A stretch of DNA of 64,000 nt from Candidatus Marinacidobacterales bacterium (GCA_965219415.1 OZ244742.1:832001-896000); one strand, 5' to 3'. Positions 24,783 to 31,689 are shown, counted from the first letter of the stretch. The notes: a model not told the origin generated them from the letters alone. Numbers and translations are program-made.

Positions 24783-26242
24783 GGGGATGTCCCGCCGGAT
24801 GTTGAATTTGGGGTAGCGGCGGCTCCTTGGCCGGCCTAAGAATAGGTCTGCCAAACAACCGTCTCCAGAGGGGGACAAGGAGCCACCAATGCCTAGGAAA
24901 TCAAAGAAGCCAGTAAGAAAGCAAACGCACTCGCCTACGGGCAAGGTAGTTGGCCAAGTCGGTCAGATACTGCTACCGATGATAGCTGGGATCGCGGCCA
25001 CGAAGGCGGAACTGACGGAATGGGTGTACGAGCAAGGACTGACAGCTCTGCACCTACTGCTCAGAGAGGACGCCGAGGAGATCGCGGGGCTCAAGGGCAA
25101 GCACGAGAAGGAGCGAACTCATAACCACTGGGGGAGCACGAACGGAGAGCTGAGCTTCGGTGGTCGTCGCATCCAAGTGTCGCGACCTCGAGTTCGCTCG
25201 AAGTCGGGCGAGGAGGCGTCGCTTCCACACTTCGAAGCCTTCCGCGAAGAAGACCCGCTTCCAGAGCGAGTGTTGAATCAGATCTTGGTGGGGGTATCGA
25301 CCCGAAATTACGAATCGAGTCTGAACAAACCCGCGGCCAAGTTGAAGTCTCGTGGCACGAGTAAGAGTGCCGCCAGCCGTCACCTCGTGAGCCAGACGAC
25401 TAAGAAGCTCGAGGAATACCTGTCTCGGCGGCTAGAGGAGTTCGAGCTTGCGGCACTGATGCTGGATGGCCTTGAGGTGGCCGGACAGACCGTCGTCGTA
25501 ACTCTAGGTATCACAATAGATGGAACGAAGGTGCCCCTGGGTATATGGCTGGGCTCGACGGAGAACTCTCGGGTGTGCACCGCGATGTTGCAGGACCTTC
25601 TCGAGCGGGGCTTGCGCGTCGATGAGTCGATTCTCTGCGTAGTGGACGGAGGCAAAGGCATCCGCAAGGCACTCGTCGACGTTTTGGGGGACCTCGCGGT
25701 CATCCAAAGGTGCCAGATCCATAAACTCCGGAATCTTCGCTCGTACCTTCCCAAGTCTCGTCACGCCTACGTACTCCAGACGATGAAGGAAGCCTACAAG
25801 TGCAAGAGTGCCGACAAGGCGCGCAAGCGACTTCAGGCATTGGTGTCGTGGCTCGAGCGAAACGGCTACGACGAAGCTGCCGGAAGCCTTCGTGAAGGGA
25901 TGGAAGAGACACTCACGGTCGTGAAGCTCGCGCTGCCCGCCTTACTTCGCCAGTCTCTTGCCACGACGAACGCCATTGAGAATCTCAACGGAACCATTCG
26001 CAGAGTATCGAGAAACGTCAAGCGTTGGAAGAGTCCTTCCATGGTTCGCCGATGGACCGCTCTTGGCGTCGTCACCGCGCAGAAAAAGTTCCGGCGTATC
26101 AAAGGCTATCGCCATATGGGCGCTTTCGTTCACGCGCTTAGAAGCAAACAGAAATCTCTTGACAGCGATGAGTTTGCTGCCTAAGAGTATTCACAGGTGC
26201 CGCCGCTACCCGACCAAATTCAACAGCGGCCGGGACATCCCC
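24783..26242 (+). mobile_element. IS256-family insertion sequence, 1460 bp, 8-bp target duplication
   Basis: Imperfect TIRs GGGGATGTCCCG..TGTTGAATTTGG..GTAGCGGCGGC at both ends; TSD CTCACACC at 24775-82 and 26243-50. Confidence 0.95.
24889..26184 (+). CDS. IS256-family DDE transposase
   Basis: GVSTR, LDG, VDGGKG, QRCQIHK, TTNAIE motifs. Confidence 0.95.
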   Translation: MPRKSKKPVRKQTHSPTGKVVGQVGQILLPMIAGIAATKAELTEWVYEQGLTALHLLLREDAEEIAGLKGKHEKERTHNHWGSTNGELSFGGRRIQVSRPRVRSKSGEEASLPHFEAFREEDPLPERVLNQILVGVSTRNYESSLNKPAAKLKSRGTSKSAASRHLVSQTTKKLEEYLSRRLEEFELAALMLDGLEVAGQTVVVTLGITIDGTKVPLGIWLGSTENSRVCTAMLQDLLERGLRVDESILCVVDGGKGIRKALVDVLGDLAVIQRCQIHKLRNLRSYLPKSRHAYVLQTMKEAYKCKSADKARKRLQALVSWLERNGYDEAAGSLREGMEETLTVVKLALPALLRQSLATTNAIENLNGTIRRVSRNVKRWKSPSMVRRWTALGVVTAQKKFRRIKGYRHMGAFVHALRSKQKSLDSDEFAA

Positions 26243-27966
26243 CTCACACCACCGCCAACGGACAGCGCGAGCCACTTGGAAGCGGACAGGGGTTGGGGAA
26301 GGCTAGCCTCTGGGTCGGCTCTCGCCGGTCATCGCTTTCTGCGGCTCGGCGCTAGCAGTGCTTGGGTCGTTTCGGGTAGTCGATCGACGACCGGGGCGCC
26401 CCTACTCGCCTCCGACCCGCACTTGGGACTCGGTATTCCCTCGGTGTGGTATGAAGTCCATCAGTCCGGCGCGGGTCTCAACGTGGCGGGAGCAAGTCTC
26501 CCCGGCCTCCCCATGGTTGTCATCGGACACAACGATCGCATCGCTTGGGGAGTCACCGCGCTCTATGCGGACGTCCAAGATCATTACGTCGAGACGATCA
26601 ACCCGTCCGACCCGGGCCAATACGCGGCGGGGGATGTCTGGGAAGACTTTCAGAGCTTTCAGGAGACCATCTCGGTAGCTGGAGGCACTCCGGTCACGCT
26701 GCCGATCCAGCATAGTCGACACGGTGTAGTCGTTTCCGATCAACCGCGGAACGGCCAAGTACTTTCCCTCCGGTGGGACGCCCCGTGGAACGGAGATAGT
26801 GCGCTCGCACTGCTAAGGTTGAACCGCGCGGGCGGTTGGTTTGAATTCACTGAGGCACTTCGGACATTAACGAGCCCCACCCTCGCTTTCCTCTACGCCG
26901 ACGTCGAAGGCAACATCGGATTCTTCCCTGCTGGCGAGGTGCCGGTTCGAACGGGGTTCGACGGAACCATGCCCGTCGACGGAGCCTCGGGGCAGTTCGA
27001 ATGGCAAGGTTATATCCCGCGCGAGATGAAGCCACTCGTCCTGAATCCCGAAGAGGGATTCATCGTTTCCGCAAACCACAAGATGGTGCCGGACGAAACG
27101 GACTACCCCTTGGGCCGGGATCAACTGGCGCCGTTCCGAGCCAACCGCATTGCGGCACTCGTCGGAGCGCGGGCTCAGCTGGGAGCCGCCGACTTCCAGG
27201 CGATCCAGGCCGATCGATACGACACCTCAACCGAGTCTCTCCTCCGATACGTGGTGGCACTGAACGTAGCCCCCGGTGATGCGAGTGACGCACAGAGTTT
27301 ATTGAGAACCTGGGACCGGAAAATGGGACGCGGCGCCGCTCCCGCACTCTATCAGGCATTCTACGTAAGGTTGCTGGCGAATACCTTTCAAGACGATGTT
27401 TCGGACGCTCTCTATCCAGATTTTTTGGACTTCGTCGAAATGGGGCATCCGGGTGGCATCTATGCGATCGTCGACGACCCCAATTCTGAATGGTGGGACA
27501 ATCGCACCACGCCTGCCGTGGAAGATCGCAAGGCAATTTTCATGCAGAGCTTCGAGGAGGCGGTCGCGCTGCTAGGCACTCGGCAAGGACAAGATCCATC
27601 TGGGTGGGACTGGGCGGCGCTGCACGGTGTATTGTTCGAGCATCCCCTAGGACAGGGGCCCCTACTCGGTTGGATATTCAATCGCGGCCCCTCACCTTTC
27701 GGCGGCTCGACCTACACCATTGCGAACGCGATGGTTTCACTCAGCGATCCGTTCGCCGCCCCTGCTGGGACGTCTTTGCGTTTAGTGATGGATGTCGGGA
27801 ATTGGAATGCGACGAGCTCGGTGATCCCCGCCGGAGCCTCGGGCCACCCTTTGAGTCCCCACTATTTCGACCAGAATGGAGACTGGCAATCGGGTCGCAA
27901 CCATCCTCTGTTATTCGATCGTGTGCAGATCGAAGGAACCGTGGAAGGCCGCCTTCTCTTGAACCC

Positions 27967-28210
27967 CTAGCAGCGCGCTGAAGAATTCACTGCACCCTGC
28001 GCGAGGAGCCATCAGCTGTCCCGAAGCCGCTTGCCGGCGAAGGGACGGCGGTGCGGGTGGGGCCCCGCCGCATTGATGAAGGAGCGAGCCCGAGTGGGCC
28101 GCCAAACTAGGTCGTTGCTAAAACTCGCCGTGGCCAGGCGGCGGGCCGACGACGGGAGGCCGAGCGAGGAGCGAGGCCAAGCGCGCGAACGCGGAGTGAG
28201 CGCGCACTAA
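27967..28210 (+). repeat. MITE/REP-like element(s): CTAG-flanked copy 27967-28110 plus adjacent related segment
   Basis: Similar to 23251-23450; GGAGTGAGCGCGCACT shared with 23425-23440; its first TAG is the acylase stop codon. Confidence 0.8.
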
Positions 28211-28214
28211 TTCA

Positions 28215-28619
28215 TTAGGATTGGCGTCGGTCGGAAGCGTGATGATGGACTCTCAACCACCGGCCCTCACGGAACACCATCACATCGGTAACCCATCCCT
28301 CCCAGTTGAACTCGATGTCATGAACGCTGCTGTATATTTTCTGTTTGTAGTCGATGATGGCCACGTCTCCGAAAAGCGACACTTGGGGTTCTTGGACGGT
28401 CGTCTTCGAGTGCTGGAACTCGCCCAGCAAGGTCTCCAGTCGGTCTCGAACCGCTTCCCAACCGCTTGCCCGAGCGCTCACACCGGCGGGAATGATGCTC
28501 GACTCGGATCCCTGATAGTGAGCGGCAATCAAGCTGTCGAGATCGCGGCGATCGAAGGCGGAGGCGATTTGAAGAACGGCATCCAACACGTCCCGCGCTT
28601 TGTCGTCTAGCTCCGTCAA
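28215..28619 (-). CDS. NTF2/SnoaL-like fold protein
   Basis: AF...D...L...Y, GWEAVR, GDVA, T.V....G.W...HHHAS pattern. Confidence 0.8.
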   Translation of the reverse strand: MTELDDKARDVLDAVLQIASAFDRRDLDSLIAAHYQGSESSIIPAGVSARASGWEAVRDRLETLLGEFQHSKTTVQEPQVSLFGDVAIIDYKQKIYSSVHDIEFNWEGWVTDVMVFREGRWLRVHHHASDRRQS

Positions 28620-28688
28620 CCTCTCCCCCCTTTCGGGCCGTCGAATCTAAAGGATTGATTCTAAATAGTATCGAGAATTATGGCAAGC

Positions 28689-28718
28689 TTGCGATGACAT
28701 TTCGGGAGTTGCTATAAT
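28689..28718 (+). promoter_or_regulatory. sigma70 promoter with extended -10 for the lysW-like/larE operon
   Basis: TTGCGA, 18 nt, TATAAT (28713-18) preceded by TGn. Confidence 0.6.
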
Positions 28719-28841
28719 TCCCCTCCGAACCAGTGGCAGGGATCCATAACGAGCTCATGACGTTCTATCTAAGCCCAAGAACGTCGGCGAAGCGAAATTC
28801 ATTGACCAAATTCTGTCTCATCGTGCTCCGCGGGAGAGCCC

Positions 28842-29015
28842 ATGCATCCTGATTGTCCAGAATGTGAGTCTGAGATCGAAATTGATAATCTGGATGTCGA
28901 CCAGGGTGAGGTGATTAGCTGCCCGGAGTGCGGTGTAGATCTCCGAGTGTTGAGTGTAGGCCCGATTGAATTGGAGCTGGCACCGGTCGAAGGCGGGGAA
29001 TGGGGTGAGATTTGA
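28842..29015 (+). CDS. LysW-like zinc-ribbon amino-group carrier protein (57 aa), atypical C-terminus
   Basis: Not in ORF track (<60 aa). MHPDCPECESEIEIDNLDVDQGEVISCPECGVDLRVLSVGPIELELAPVEGGEWGEI; two CPEC motifs, acidic, WGE motif; RBS GGGAG; stop overlaps larE TTG. Confidence 0.88.
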   Translation: MHPDCPECESEIEIDNLDVDQGEVISCPECGVDLRVLSVGPIELELAPVEGGEWGEI

Positions 29016-29893
29016 AAGAACAGAACACGATGAGAGATGGAGCAGGACCGGTGGAGACGGTGGTTGAGCAAGCGGAGACGAAGCGCGCAAAGCTGGAATC
29101 GATCCTGAAGGAGATGGGCTCCGTTGTGGTGGCCTTCAGCGGCGGAGTAGATAGCGCTTACTTGGCCTATGCGGCCCACCATGCTCTCGGCGAAGCTGCG
29201 CTCGCGGTCACCGGTGAAAGCCCGAGCTACCCCGACTACCAAAGGCAAATGGCAAAGCGGATTACTTCGCAATTCGAGATTCCCCACCTCTTCGTCCAAA
29301 CGCGTGAGGTCGAAATCGAGGCCTATCGTGCCAATGGAAGCGACCGATGCTTTCACTGCAAGAACGAGTTGTACACGCGACTCACGAACTTGGCTAATGA
29401 GCGAGGTTTCGACTTCGTCGCTGACGGCTCGAACCTAGATGATTTAGGGGACTTCCGCCCGGGACGACGGGCGGCAAAGGCCTTGAGCGTGAGGAGCCCA
29501 CTCGAGGAAGCGGGTTTGACGAAGTCAGAGATCCGTTACCTCTCTCGGCAAGTCTCTCTTCCAACCGCCGACGAGCCCGCGTCAGCGTGCTTGTCCTCGC
29601 GCATTGCTTACCAGAGTCCGGTGACGCCCGAAAAGCTCAGAACGGTGGAAGACGGTGAGAGCGCACTGCGCGAGCTCGGATTTCGTCATTTTAGAGTACG
29701 CCATCACGACCAACTCGTACGCCTCGAGTTCGCACCCGAGGAAATCGCCCGCGCTTTGTCCCCAGACATGGTCCCAAAGTTGCTGACGAGGTTCAAAGAG
29801 CTCGGTTTCACGTTCGTGACGGTCGATCTCCAGGGTTACCGCACTGGAAGCCTGAACGAGGTGCTTCCTCCCTTGCAGCTGCCGGTGGTATAA
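29012..29893 (+). CDS. larE: ATP-dependent sulfur transferase LarE (PP-loop, CxxC-C type)
   Basis: SGGVDS PP-loop, RCFHCK, DDLGDFRPG, ACLSSR, RVRHH, GYRTGSLN. Confidence 0.92.
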   Translation: MKEQNTMRDGAGPVETVVEQAETKRAKLESILKEMGSVVVAFSGGVDSAYLAYAAHHALGEAALAVTGESPSYPDYQRQMAKRITSQFEIPHLFVQTREVEIEAYRANGSDRCFHCKNELYTRLTNLANERGFDFVADGSNLDDLGDFRPGRRAAKALSVRSPLEEAGLTKSEIRYLSRQVSLPTADEPASACLSSRIAYQSPVTPEKLRTVEDGESALRELGFRHFRVRHHDQLVRLEFAPEEIARALSPDMVPKLLTRFKELGFTFVTVDLQGYRTGSLNEVLPPLQLPVV

Positions 29894-29935
29894 TCCGACC
29901 CTCCGAAACGATAAATCGGTTCTCCGTTTCAGGCG

Positions 29936-30259
29936 ATGCACTTTATGGCGATTGAGATCCGCATCGAGAGCTCCTGGCAGACTGATGATGGTGAAGGCCG
30001 TAGCATCGAGGTATTGACGTCCGAACGCGGTCACCCGGGGGAGGATCCGAGCGAGGATTCCAAGTGGTTCGCGGGTGGGGACCTCGCCGACCTCAAGCGC
30101 TATCTCACCGAACTGGTGGACCGTAAGGCGGAGTGTTTCCGGGGACGGGACCGCAGGGAATGTGCTGGTTGTTCGCGCGTAGTCAACACCGATAGCCCCA
30201 ACCCGAGGTTCCTTTGCGAAGACTGCGCCGCTTCACCCCCCTCCCCCCCAAAAAAATGA
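29936..30259 (+). CDS. Small hypothetical protein with C-terminal zinc ribbon
   Basis: CAGC-x14-CEDC; stop overlaps the next ATG (ATGA). Confidence 0.65.
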   Translation: MHFMAIEIRIESSWQTDDGEGRSIEVLTSERGHPGEDPSEDSKWFAGGDLADLKRYLTELVDRKAECFRGRDRRECAGCSRVVNTDSPNPRFLCEDCAASPPSPPKK

Positions 30260-31689
30260 CCCGGGTTGGCCCGTCCCGCCTCACACTGAGGCTCGTTAGC
30301 CTCGCCGGAATCGGCGTAGCCATTTGGAGCTTTCCGTACGCTCACGGATCGTCTCCACCTGACCAGAGAACTGAAGAGCTCCTCGTACCGGGATTACGGC
30401 ACACGCGAGTCCTTCGGGGTAGCACAGCTTCATCTGTCCGCTACCGGATCCTGGTCGGCTCGTTCGACTCCCAAGCCGCGGCGGATGCAATGCTCGCCCG
30501 GCTGAAAAATGCTGGAGTGGCTGCCGCACCTCACTACCGTGGCCTTCGCTATCGCATCTGCGTGGAAGCCTTGCCCGATCGGAAAGCCGCCGAGACTCAA
30601 CGACAGATACTGAGCGCAGCGGGCTTCCCCCCTGAGATGACCATCGAGGAATACCTTCAGGACGTGACCAACGCCGATGGCCCTTGGGAGATCCACATCC
30701 TCGAGGCCGATCCAAATCAAACCCGGGTGCGGGTTGCCCACGCCTACGATGCGGCCATCGGGCTCGAGACAACGAGTGGTCTCGCCCGTCGACGCGGCGC
30801 CATCGCCGCCATCAACGGCGGTTACTATGTGCGGACCGGAATACTCCAGGGTGACGCTCTGGGTGTGCTTCGAGTGGAAGGCGCGCTCCTTTCCGAGCCT
30901 GATCGGGGACGTGCGGCCTTGGGCATTTCGGATAGCGAGGGGAGAACTCAATTTCTCTTCGGGAGACTTCGCTTTCGAGGAGATCTGGTCTTCGAGAACG
31001 GTACGCGTGAGAAACTTGACGGTCTCAATCGCCGCCGAGGACGGAAGGAAGTCGTCCTTTATACGCCGGAGTTCCATCGAACAACCCTTACCGCGCCGAG
31101 TGGCGCGGAAGTGGTGGTGCGCGAAAACCAAATCGCAGAGGTCAGGCTGGAGAGCGGAAGCTCCGTCATACCGCGGTCGGGGTTTGTCATTTCCCTCGCG
31201 GCATCGCGAGCCGTGGATTTGATCTCTCGATTCCAAGTCGGTCACAACGTGACTCTCGATTTTTCTCTCCTGCCATCCCGAACCGATCACCGAAGGAGCT
31301 GGAATGAGACGACCTCGATAGTCGGCGGAGGACCTCTGCTTCTTTCCGAAGGGAAGCGGATCGAAGACCCAGGCACCGAATCTATATCTCAAGTCTTCTA
31401 CCACTCTCGTCACCCGCGAACGGGGGTCGGGGCACGAGCCGACGGAACGTTGCTGTTCGTCACCGTCGATGGCCGCCAACCCCAAACGAGCGTCGGAATG
31501 TCGCTTCCCGAGTTTACGGATCTATTCATCGAGCTCGGTGCGGTTTCTGCAATGAACCTGGATGGCGGCGGGTCTACTGCGATGGTCGCGCGCAACCGAC
31601 TGGTGAACTCACCCTCCGATCCAACCGGCGAGCGACAAAACGCAGACTCGATCCTTCTTTTCCCTCGTAACTCGAAACCACCGTCCTAA
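30256..31689 (+). CDS. Secreted SPOR + phosphodiester glycosidase (NAGPA-like) protein
   Basis: Signal peptide, SPOR-like YRILVGSF...A, AINGGYY, HPRTGVG, VDGRQ, AMNLDGGGS. Confidence 0.88.
   Translation: MTRVGPSRLTLRLVSLAGIGVAIWSFPYAHGSSPPDQRTEELLVPGLRHTRVLRGSTASSVRYRILVGSFDSQAAADAMLARLKNAGVAAAPHYRGLRYRICVEALPDRKAAETQRQILSAAGFPPEMTIEEYLQDVTNADGPWEIHILEADPNQTRVRVAHAYDAAIGLETTSGLARRRGAIAAINGGYYVRTGILQGDALGVLRVEGALLSEPDRGRAALGISDSEGRTQFLFGRLRFRGDLVFENGTREKLDGLNRRRGRKEVVLYTPEFHRTTLTAPSGAEVVVRENQIAEVRLESGSSVIPRSGFVISLAASRAVDLISRFQVGHNVTLDFSLLPSRTDHRRSWNETTSIVGGGPLLLSEGKRIEDPGTESISQVFYHSRHPRTGVGARADGTLLFVTVDGRQPQTSVGMSLPEFTDLFIELGAVSAMNLDGGGSTAMVARNRLVNSPSDPTGERQNADSILLFPRNSKPPS

Follow-up and report, generated by a model that had tools for sequence, protein, structure and literature searches.

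A LysW-like zinc-ribbon protein encoded directly upstream of [4Fe-4S]-type LarE in Vicinamibacteria: a probable lineage-specific accessory protein

What is a gene for a LysW-like zinc ribbon, of the kind named as an alpha-aminoadipate carrier, doing immediately in front of a gene for LarE, a sulfur insertase of nickel-pincer nucleotide (NPN) cofactor synthesis? The question is raised by a 64,000-nucleotide stretch of DNA from a Candidatus Marinacidobacterales bacterium (GCA_965219415.1 OZ244742.1:832001-896000), hereafter the window, which is contig 1, 832001-896000, of a host genome of 8.05 Mb in 3 contigs. A first-pass annotation of the window had described a short, acidic open reading frame (ORF) whose stop overlaps the start of larE and had proposed that it encodes a repurposed carrier. 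The analysis reported here points to a LarE accessory protein of LysW descent, probably lineage-specific and so far undescribed, in which both the enzyme and the carrier are of known kinds. The two genes are:

28842-29015, plus strand: LysW-like zinc-ribbon gene, assigned from its PF21344 match, an AlphaFold2 model with Foldseek search, the ratio of non-synonymous to synonymous substitution rates (dN/dS) and independent contigs
29012-29893, plus strand: larE, encoding a [4Fe-4S]-type (CxxC..C) ATP-dependent sulfur insertase, assigned from TIGR00268 and invariant motifs

A LysW-like protein encoded in front of LarE

The small ORF encodes 57 amino acids (MHPDCPEC...CPECG...APVEGGEWGEI) with two CPEC knuckles, C5/C8 and C27/C30, and with 16 Asp and Glu residues against one Arg and no Lys, so that the acidic protein, its knuckles and its GGEWGEI end are all as first described. 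The product passes the Pfam family PF21344 (Zn_ribbon_LysW) with 52.2 bits over a cut-off of 27 and fails both lysW equivalogs, TIGR01206 (47.6 bits, cut-off 53.2) and NF041070 (45.2 bits, cut-off 75), and a profile search of the host genome found exactly one PF21344 gene. An AlphaFold2 model built on 59 homologues has a predicted local distance difference test score (pLDDT) of 82.3, with residues 51-57 below 50 and predicted to form a disordered tail. When this model was searched with Foldseek, ranks 1-6 were all LysW chains, at template modelling (TM) scores of 0.70-0.76 and 33-42% identity. The protein thus has the zinc-ribbon fold of LysW from Thermus thermophilus (3wwl), Thermococcus kodakarensis (5k2m) and Sulfolobus tokodaii (3vpb), with a profile match of E 2e-10, and shares with LysW the four Cys ligands, the acidic surface and, at the C-terminus, an acidic and flexible tail that has a Trp near its end, at a length of 57 residues compared with 53-56. 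It differs in a two-residue insertion between the knuckles and in its terminus: solved LysW chains end ...EDWGE, the last Glu being the attachment site, whereas the small protein ends EWGEI.

The gene is under purifying selection. Compared with the nearest relative in the window's family it shows 15 synonymous and 2 non-synonymous differences, and dN/dS is 0.02-0.21 in those pairs of the family in which dS is unsaturated. Positions 28842-29015 are covered by contigs of four runs from four studies (one of them, X1, possibly the source assembly) with zero indels, and two of the four runs differ from the window, solely at 28852 (Asp4Gly), 28887 (Asn16Asp) and 28958 (synonymous). In all covering contigs the final codons and the larE overlap are unchanged, and relatives of the window carry the same tail. 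The tail is not a sequencing error: because independent contigs agree on the last codons and the overlap, an EDWGE stop masked by such an error is excluded, and the non-canonical end suspected from the start is genuine.

The larE ORF encodes 293 amino acids from a TTG at 29012-29014 to position 29893, with an alternative in-frame ATG at 29030. As first reported, the TGA stop of the small ORF (29013-29015) overlaps the TTG start, giving an overlap of 4 nucleotides, and in three close relatives (loci L018, L019 and L024) the alignment runs from the first residue with the same overlap. The product matches TIGR00268 with 313.6 bits over a cut-off of 150 and matches the L. plantarum LarE structures 5udq and 6b2o at E about 1e-35. 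Among 59 cognate LarEs the PP-loop S43-G44-G45-x-D47-S48, the cluster ligands C113, C116 and C193, and S196, R228 and R230 are all invariant, which bears out the assignment to the CxxC..C type, a cluster-ligand motif defined in PMC9283937. The last three residues align with S180, R212 and R214 of L. plantarum LarE, given in the available text of the same paper as the residues that bind the phosphate of P2CMN. In its PP-loop, CxxC..C motif and Ser/Arg residues the host enzyme is therefore like the characterized LarEs, namely the Thermotoga maritima [4Fe-4S] LarE (PMC9283937, as far as its text was available) and the sacrificial Lactobacillus plantarum LarE (5udq).

That the window holds no larA, larB or larC had been read as a pointer to a new system. 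All three are absent from the window as stated, and all three lie over cut-off on other contigs: a larA-like gene (Lar_N, 128.6 bits) and larB (LarB, 296.6 bits) on contig 3, and larC (LarC, 177.1 bits) on contig 2. This larE is the only copy in the genome. Because larA, larB and larC are present and LarE is single-copy, the host LarE most likely performs ordinary NPN cofactor synthesis, and the absence from the window loses its force as an argument. Among 61 relatives, LarE was found in 61 and LarB in 60. A second LarE, unlinked to the small gene, occurs in two genomes of family f2 (G022:C2:645938-646714 and G016:C4:1827519-1828292), and G008, of the same genus as G022, has an unlinked LarE only.

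A paralogue outside lysine synthesis

No LysX/RimK-type ligase scores over cut-off in the host genome, where the best matches reach 43 bits (cut-off 143.4) and 45.4 bits (cut-off 275.6) and sit in ORFs of 472-1120 amino acids; the absence of lysX that was first noted for the window thus extends to the genome. The host has lysA (460.9 bits). LysX was likewise found in none of five further pair-bearing genomes (94-100% complete), and the lysX-lysY-lysZ operon context was not seen at the small gene, whose neighbours are a SnoaL-like gene and larE. The canonical genes are found elsewhere in relatives. Genomes of family f2, of the window's order, have two LysW-type genes each, the second about 36% identical and placed within lysW-lysX-argC/lysY-..-lysZ operons (lysX at 318-321 bits), and the canonical lysW of family f3 has the tail EEDWGE and adjoins lysX (324.9 bits) and argC. 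Because these relatives hold a canonical lysW in lysX-containing operons, the LarE-linked gene is, on gene content and context, a separate LysW paralogue outside lysine synthesis, as the first-pass annotation had argued. Unlike LysW, it comes without a LysX/ArgX ligase or lysZYJK context, and its constant neighbour is LarE.

Other LysW-like ribbons were seen in the course of this comparison. A third kind, of about 50 residues with short tails (...AGEEE, ...ADEDEE, ...ETVD), is encoded at L158 2983-3123 (G056), L160 2444-2572 (G058) and L161 2796-2921 (G060) and in G056 and G058 lies behind a gene for a polyprenyl synthetase; of the three genomes G056 was the one searched for LysX, with no match. 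LysW-type ribbons have diversified in the class Vicinamibacteria. Another LysW-like group ends ...EDGDL, ...DGDLS, ...DGDFS or ...DGDDS (L111, L112, L121 and L126; P0019-P0022), has no LarE within 2.9 kb downstream, and comes from records titled Terriglobales, Acidobacteriales or 'uncultured Acidobacteriota'.

Conservation and range of the pair

Coupling of the small gene to LarE is conserved well beyond chance. Thirty loci of relatives were returned, 27 with a homologue at 54% identity or more, that is at least 54%, and three with canonical LysW, and a same-strand LarE lies directly downstream in 25 of the 27 (including L021 of the unpublished genome G007). A public scan with one genome per species yielded 304 relatives of the small protein; among the best 80 of these, which were analysed, LarE lies directly downstream in 64 (62 by the gap criterion, 2 by read-through), and the record titles of the linked loci name Vicinamibacteria and other Acidobacteriota. 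The 16 unlinked loci comprise nine canonical ...EEDWGE genes, mostly from Chloroflexota, four with ...DGDFS or ...EDGDL(S) tails, and L101, L117 and L077, the last at a contig end. Across linked loci LarE identities fall to about 48% with the pair still together, and the small gene and larE are the sole neighbours shared across orders. The gap between them has an approximate median of 17 nucleotides and is negative, measured to the start of the LarE match, in 19 of 75.

Coordinates combined with direct reading gave an intact pair in 26 of the 61 relatives (LarE itself is in every one), distributed over families as follows:

Family f1: intact pair in 8 of 8
Family f2: intact pair in 14 of 19
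Family f3: intact pair in 0 of 28
Family f4: intact pair in 0 of 1
Family f5: intact pair in 2 of 2
Family f6: intact pair in 1 of 1
Family f7: intact pair in 1 of 1
Family f8: intact pair in 0 of 1

An even sample of the phylum (151 genomes, 110 with LarE and 59 with a PF21344 match; G107 unpublished) contains adjacent PF21344 and LarE genes in six genomes of the same class and in G120, from another class. An eighth, divergent adjacent copy, in G179, was missed by the hidden Markov model (HMM) and found by reading the DNA. Within the class, 7 of 10 LarE-bearing genomes of this sample have the adjacent small gene. The pairing is near-confined to the class Vicinamibacteria, where it spans several orders and has undergone loss or breakage more than once; the coupling first proposed from a single locus is conserved, at 64 of the best 80 of 304 and 26 of 61. 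On a quick tree the linked LarEs fall into three well-supported clades, for which a single origin may still hold, and the three in-class genomes that lack the partner (f9) have a LarE from a different clade.

The C-terminal tail

Tail statistics were drawn from 73 unique LarE-linked proteins, except for the Asp/Glu content, which was taken from 75 rows before removal of duplicates. Exactly four Cys occur in 70 of the 73. The part after the ribbon has 10-50 residues (median 38) and at least 25 in 44 of 73, with a median Asp/Glu content of 74%; LysW has no spacer, in contrast to many relatives of the small protein, in which an Asp/Glu spacer of 25-45 residues is found. Trp stands within the last five residues in 55 of 73, and a hydrophobic or aromatic residue within the last four in 69. 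The last residue is free: E in 44, S in 8, I in 7, D in 6 and others in 8, with E, S, I, D, N, F, A, Q, P, H and K observed overall and G never. A LysW-like W-x-E end is present in 32 of 73 and a window-like W-x-[DE]-x end in 21. The window's family ends EWGE[I/M/L/F/A] and a sister family EW[KRQ][DE][SNKQPH], and other orders have LysW-like W-x-E or simple acidic ends. The extra Ile, singled out at first, therefore marks the window's family and not the LarE-linked group as a whole. Because an acidic stretch and a hydrophobic tip are conserved and the last residue is free, the tail suits docking more than it suits a reactive site.

A possible accessory subunit of LarE, and its rivals

Gene context suggests that the small protein is co-expressed with LarE and probably binds it. 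The reading favoured here, which we regard as evenly poised between right and wrong, is that a LysX-independent paralogue of LysW serves [4Fe-4S] LarE as an accessory subunit bound non-covalently. Its acidic zinc-ribbon domain would dock electrostatically, as LysW meets its enzymes, and its flexible acidic tail of 10-50 residues, with a hydrophobic or Trp tip beside Asp/Glu, would enter a pocket on LarE or on its sulfur supplier. The likeliest jobs for the protein would be shielding the open iron site and the substrate groove of the three-Cys cluster, which is labile to oxygen, or bringing in the cysteine desulfurase that supplies the cluster with fresh sulfide. The small protein would aid LarE and not be essential to it, because many LarE-bearing relatives lack the small gene. 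According to the available text of PMC9283937, the [4Fe-5S] state 'would presumably require additional reductant' to form, and the sulfur comes from a desulfurase encoded elsewhere. Prediction of the complex of LarE with the small protein gave an ipSAE of 0.00 in two runs (59-row alignments, without controls), a result that is not evidence either way.

The TtuA-TtuB system is among those that pair a PP-loop [4Fe-4S] sulfurtransferase with a small carrier protein, in this case TtuB, which is a ubiquitin-like beta-grasp protein with a Gly-Gly end that is activated by an E1-like enzyme. The likeness lies in the combination of a three-Cys-cluster PP-loop enzyme with a small protein that could bring its flexible C-terminus close to the open iron. 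Unlike TtuB, the protein described here is a zinc ribbon and never ends in Gly (0 of 73): a test for a beta-grasp, Gly-Gly-ended carrier of the ThiS/MoaD/TtuB type found the zinc-ribbon fold instead, and the annotated loci (the window and the loci scanned with Pfam) hold no E1-like gene.

Several observations weigh against an accessory subunit. Binding to LarE is itself a prediction. All 28 genomes of family f3, in the window's own order, have LarE and LarB and no linked small gene, and three of the 19 f2 genomes carry a broken copy of the small gene, with a split frame in G010 and G014 and an internal deletion in G012. In G008 larE is gone from between the small gene and the 107-residue ORF that otherwise follows larE (orf107), with a LarE elsewhere, and in G060 the small gene keeps its OmpA-kinase downstream context and larE lies beside larB; because the small gene is intact after separation in both, it may not need LarE alongside. 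Outside the class, PF21344 is adjacent in 1 of 100 LarE-bearing genomes by coordinates, a figure that may be an undercount because the HMM missed the in-class copy of G179, and direct reading of upstream regions found the small gene in 0 of 12. Tail ends are variable and some lack a hydrophobic tip (...DEEE, ...DDDD). No extra basic patch was found on the linked LarEs, whose isoelectric points are 5.9-6.8. Positions specific to linked LarEs number only four (R78, F88, E188 and S191), in a comparison confounded by relatedness.

Genuine fusions of the two genes were also looked for, and their absence counts on the same side. The 27 'longer' matches are all singleton clusters, and the nine inspected are all garbled: eight (P0023, P0024, P0025, P0028, P0031, P0034, P0038 and P0041) show Arg/Thr runs behind the acidic tract, with the LarE frame drifting in and out, and the ninth, P0048, carries upstream CoA-binding domains and has no LarE part. 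The read-through ORFs of L060 and L061 have the same look, as do the Arg/Thr runs in L070, L072, L078, L085, L089 and L107, and the garbled fusions are taken, from their sequences, to be assembly frameshifts in the GA-rich tract of the tail. Apparent frameshifts in this poly-Asp/Glu tract are frequent, mostly in records with 'MFD' isolate names (proteins P0023-P0047), and gene callers turn them into false LysW-LarE fusions.

Adjacency without function is the plainest rival: gene order would have been inherited within one class, and the ribbon would serve another enzyme or act in regulation. We consider this unlikely. The near-confinement of the pairing to one class suits it, as do the small genes that are intact without an adjacent LarE in G008 and G060 and the further LysW-like paralogues beside unrelated genes in G056, G058 and G060, for example after a polyprenyl synthetase. 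Inherited order fits poorly, however, with a pair that persists to about 48% LarE identity as all other neighbours change, with stops and starts that overlap or lie close (median gap about 17 nucleotides, 19 of 75 negative), and with the lack of the partner in genomes that have a different LarE lineage. Help with redox chemistry or iron is rather less probable. The four-Cys site would bind iron in the manner of rubredoxin and give electrons for the conversion of persulfide to cluster sulfide, or the acidic tail would bring iron for repair. The CPxC...CPxCG knuckles do resemble those of rubredoxin, many tails are long Asp/Glu runs, and frataxin-type proteins bind iron via acidic surfaces. Family and fold matches nonetheless point to LysW, deposited with zinc (Zn appears in the 3vpb title), and the sole rubredoxin-type match of the small protein, NF033497, scores 17 bits against a cut-off of 32, with no Pfam rubredoxin among the 15 families listed. 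A place for such a helper would exist, as formation of the [4Fe-5S] state needs a reductant not yet identified in the available text of PMC9283937.

Covalent carriage, the idea of the first-pass annotation, is the most doubtful of these proposals. A tail carboxylate, either the terminal alpha group or the side chain of a Glu or Asp at -2, would be adenylated by LarE or by another enzyme and converted to a thiocarboxylate, and the protein would act as a sulfur donor or store or as a carrier of an intermediate. Its ancestor LysW is loaded covalently on the C-terminal Glu, and PDB titles name LysW-gamma-AAA; the tail is predicted to be flexible, and an acidic residue is common at -2 (window order) or at the end (W-x-E, 32 of 73). 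LarE itself adenylates a carboxylate and then transfers sulfur (PMC9283937 and PMC11796402, in the text available). Against this, no ATP-grasp ligase was found in the host or in the five further genomes with the pair, some tails consist purely of Asp and Glu, P0014 has Gln at -2, and the single LarE of the genome still has to serve P2CMN. To our knowledge every known protein thiocarboxylate carrier ends in Gly, and here the terminal position is highly variable, with Gly in 0 of 73; a variable, never Gly-Gly C-terminus argues against terminal-carboxylate chemistry. A persulfide relay is excluded because there is no Cys beyond the four that bind metal (exactly four in 70 of 73). A further reading, to which we attach little probability, about as little as to the redox helper, makes the protein a ligase-independent, LysW-derived partner in LarE chemistry, its tail carboxylate capping the open cluster iron or a LarE-made thiocarboxylate feeding sulfur into the cofactor.

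Neighbouring genes

Around the pair the window contains the following features:

28689-28718, plus strand: sigma-70-like promoter site, TTGCGA, 18 nucleotides, TATAAT, with TG before the -10
29936-30259, plus strand: 107-residue ORF (orf107) with a C-terminal CAGC...CEDC pair, 42 nucleotides 3' of larE
28215-28619, minus strand: SnoaL-like gene (PF13474, 39.1 bits), divergent from the pair
24889-26184, plus strand: Mutator-family transposase (PF00872, 145.8 bits)
25958-27970, plus strand: penicillin amidase gene abutting the transposase, its Pfam match beginning at profile position 168 of 675

The promoter site, predicted from consensus only, has 10 of 12 consensus matches and lies about 120 nucleotides upstream of the small ORF; two sigma-70-like sites were found in 28500-30300, compared with 0.5 expected from shuffles. 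A search of 28550-29100 against Rfam gave nothing credible, its one snoRNA match (17.3 bits against 40) being taken as chance. The SnoaL-like gene has its own promoter-like site at 28686-28658 and keeps its position only in the window's family (8 loci). The penicillin amidase gene, which occupies the same place upstream of the pair in relatives, looks 5'-truncated by insertion of the transposase. No Pfam or NCBIfam family over cut-off was found for orf107, which lies 3' of larE in 14 loci of the window's order, comes straight after the small gene where larE is deleted (L040), and may in that order form the third member of the operon.

The penicillin amidase, SnoaL, orf107, NAGPA and MBL neighbours recur solely within the window's order. 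Pfam scans of seven loci from other orders place a PilZ response regulator/CNNM, sulfatase-TPR or MoeA upstream of the pair and OmpA, a kinase, a methyltransferase or others downstream, and no sulfur, iron-sulfur or lysine gene travels with the pair in the window's order or in these seven loci.

Significance

In the literature consulted, no paper was found in which LarE is connected with a partner of LysW type or with a zinc ribbon. The only LarE partner shown so far, in the available text of PMC9283937, is a heterologous cysteine desulfurase; the literature consulted describes no other protein partner for any LarE, whereas here a dedicated small gene precedes larE. Where a database name is given, these proteins are called 'alpha-aminoadipate carrier protein LysW', a name that wrongly credits genomes with an aminoadipate route to lysine that they lack.

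If the tail did take part in LarE chemistry, the protein would mark the first use of an amino-group-carrier scaffold for inserting sulfur into a cofactor, and it would be the first sulfur carrier built on a zinc ribbon. As an accessory subunit, the favoured reading, it would be a LysW scaffold reused outside amino-acid biosynthesis and without an ATP-grasp ligase. The pair bears on the question of how [4Fe-4S] LarEs get sulfide and electrons, or survive oxygen, in aerobes, and a conserved small partner in aerobic soil Acidobacteria offers a concrete two-protein system for LarE sulfide and electron supply and for its protection from oxygen.

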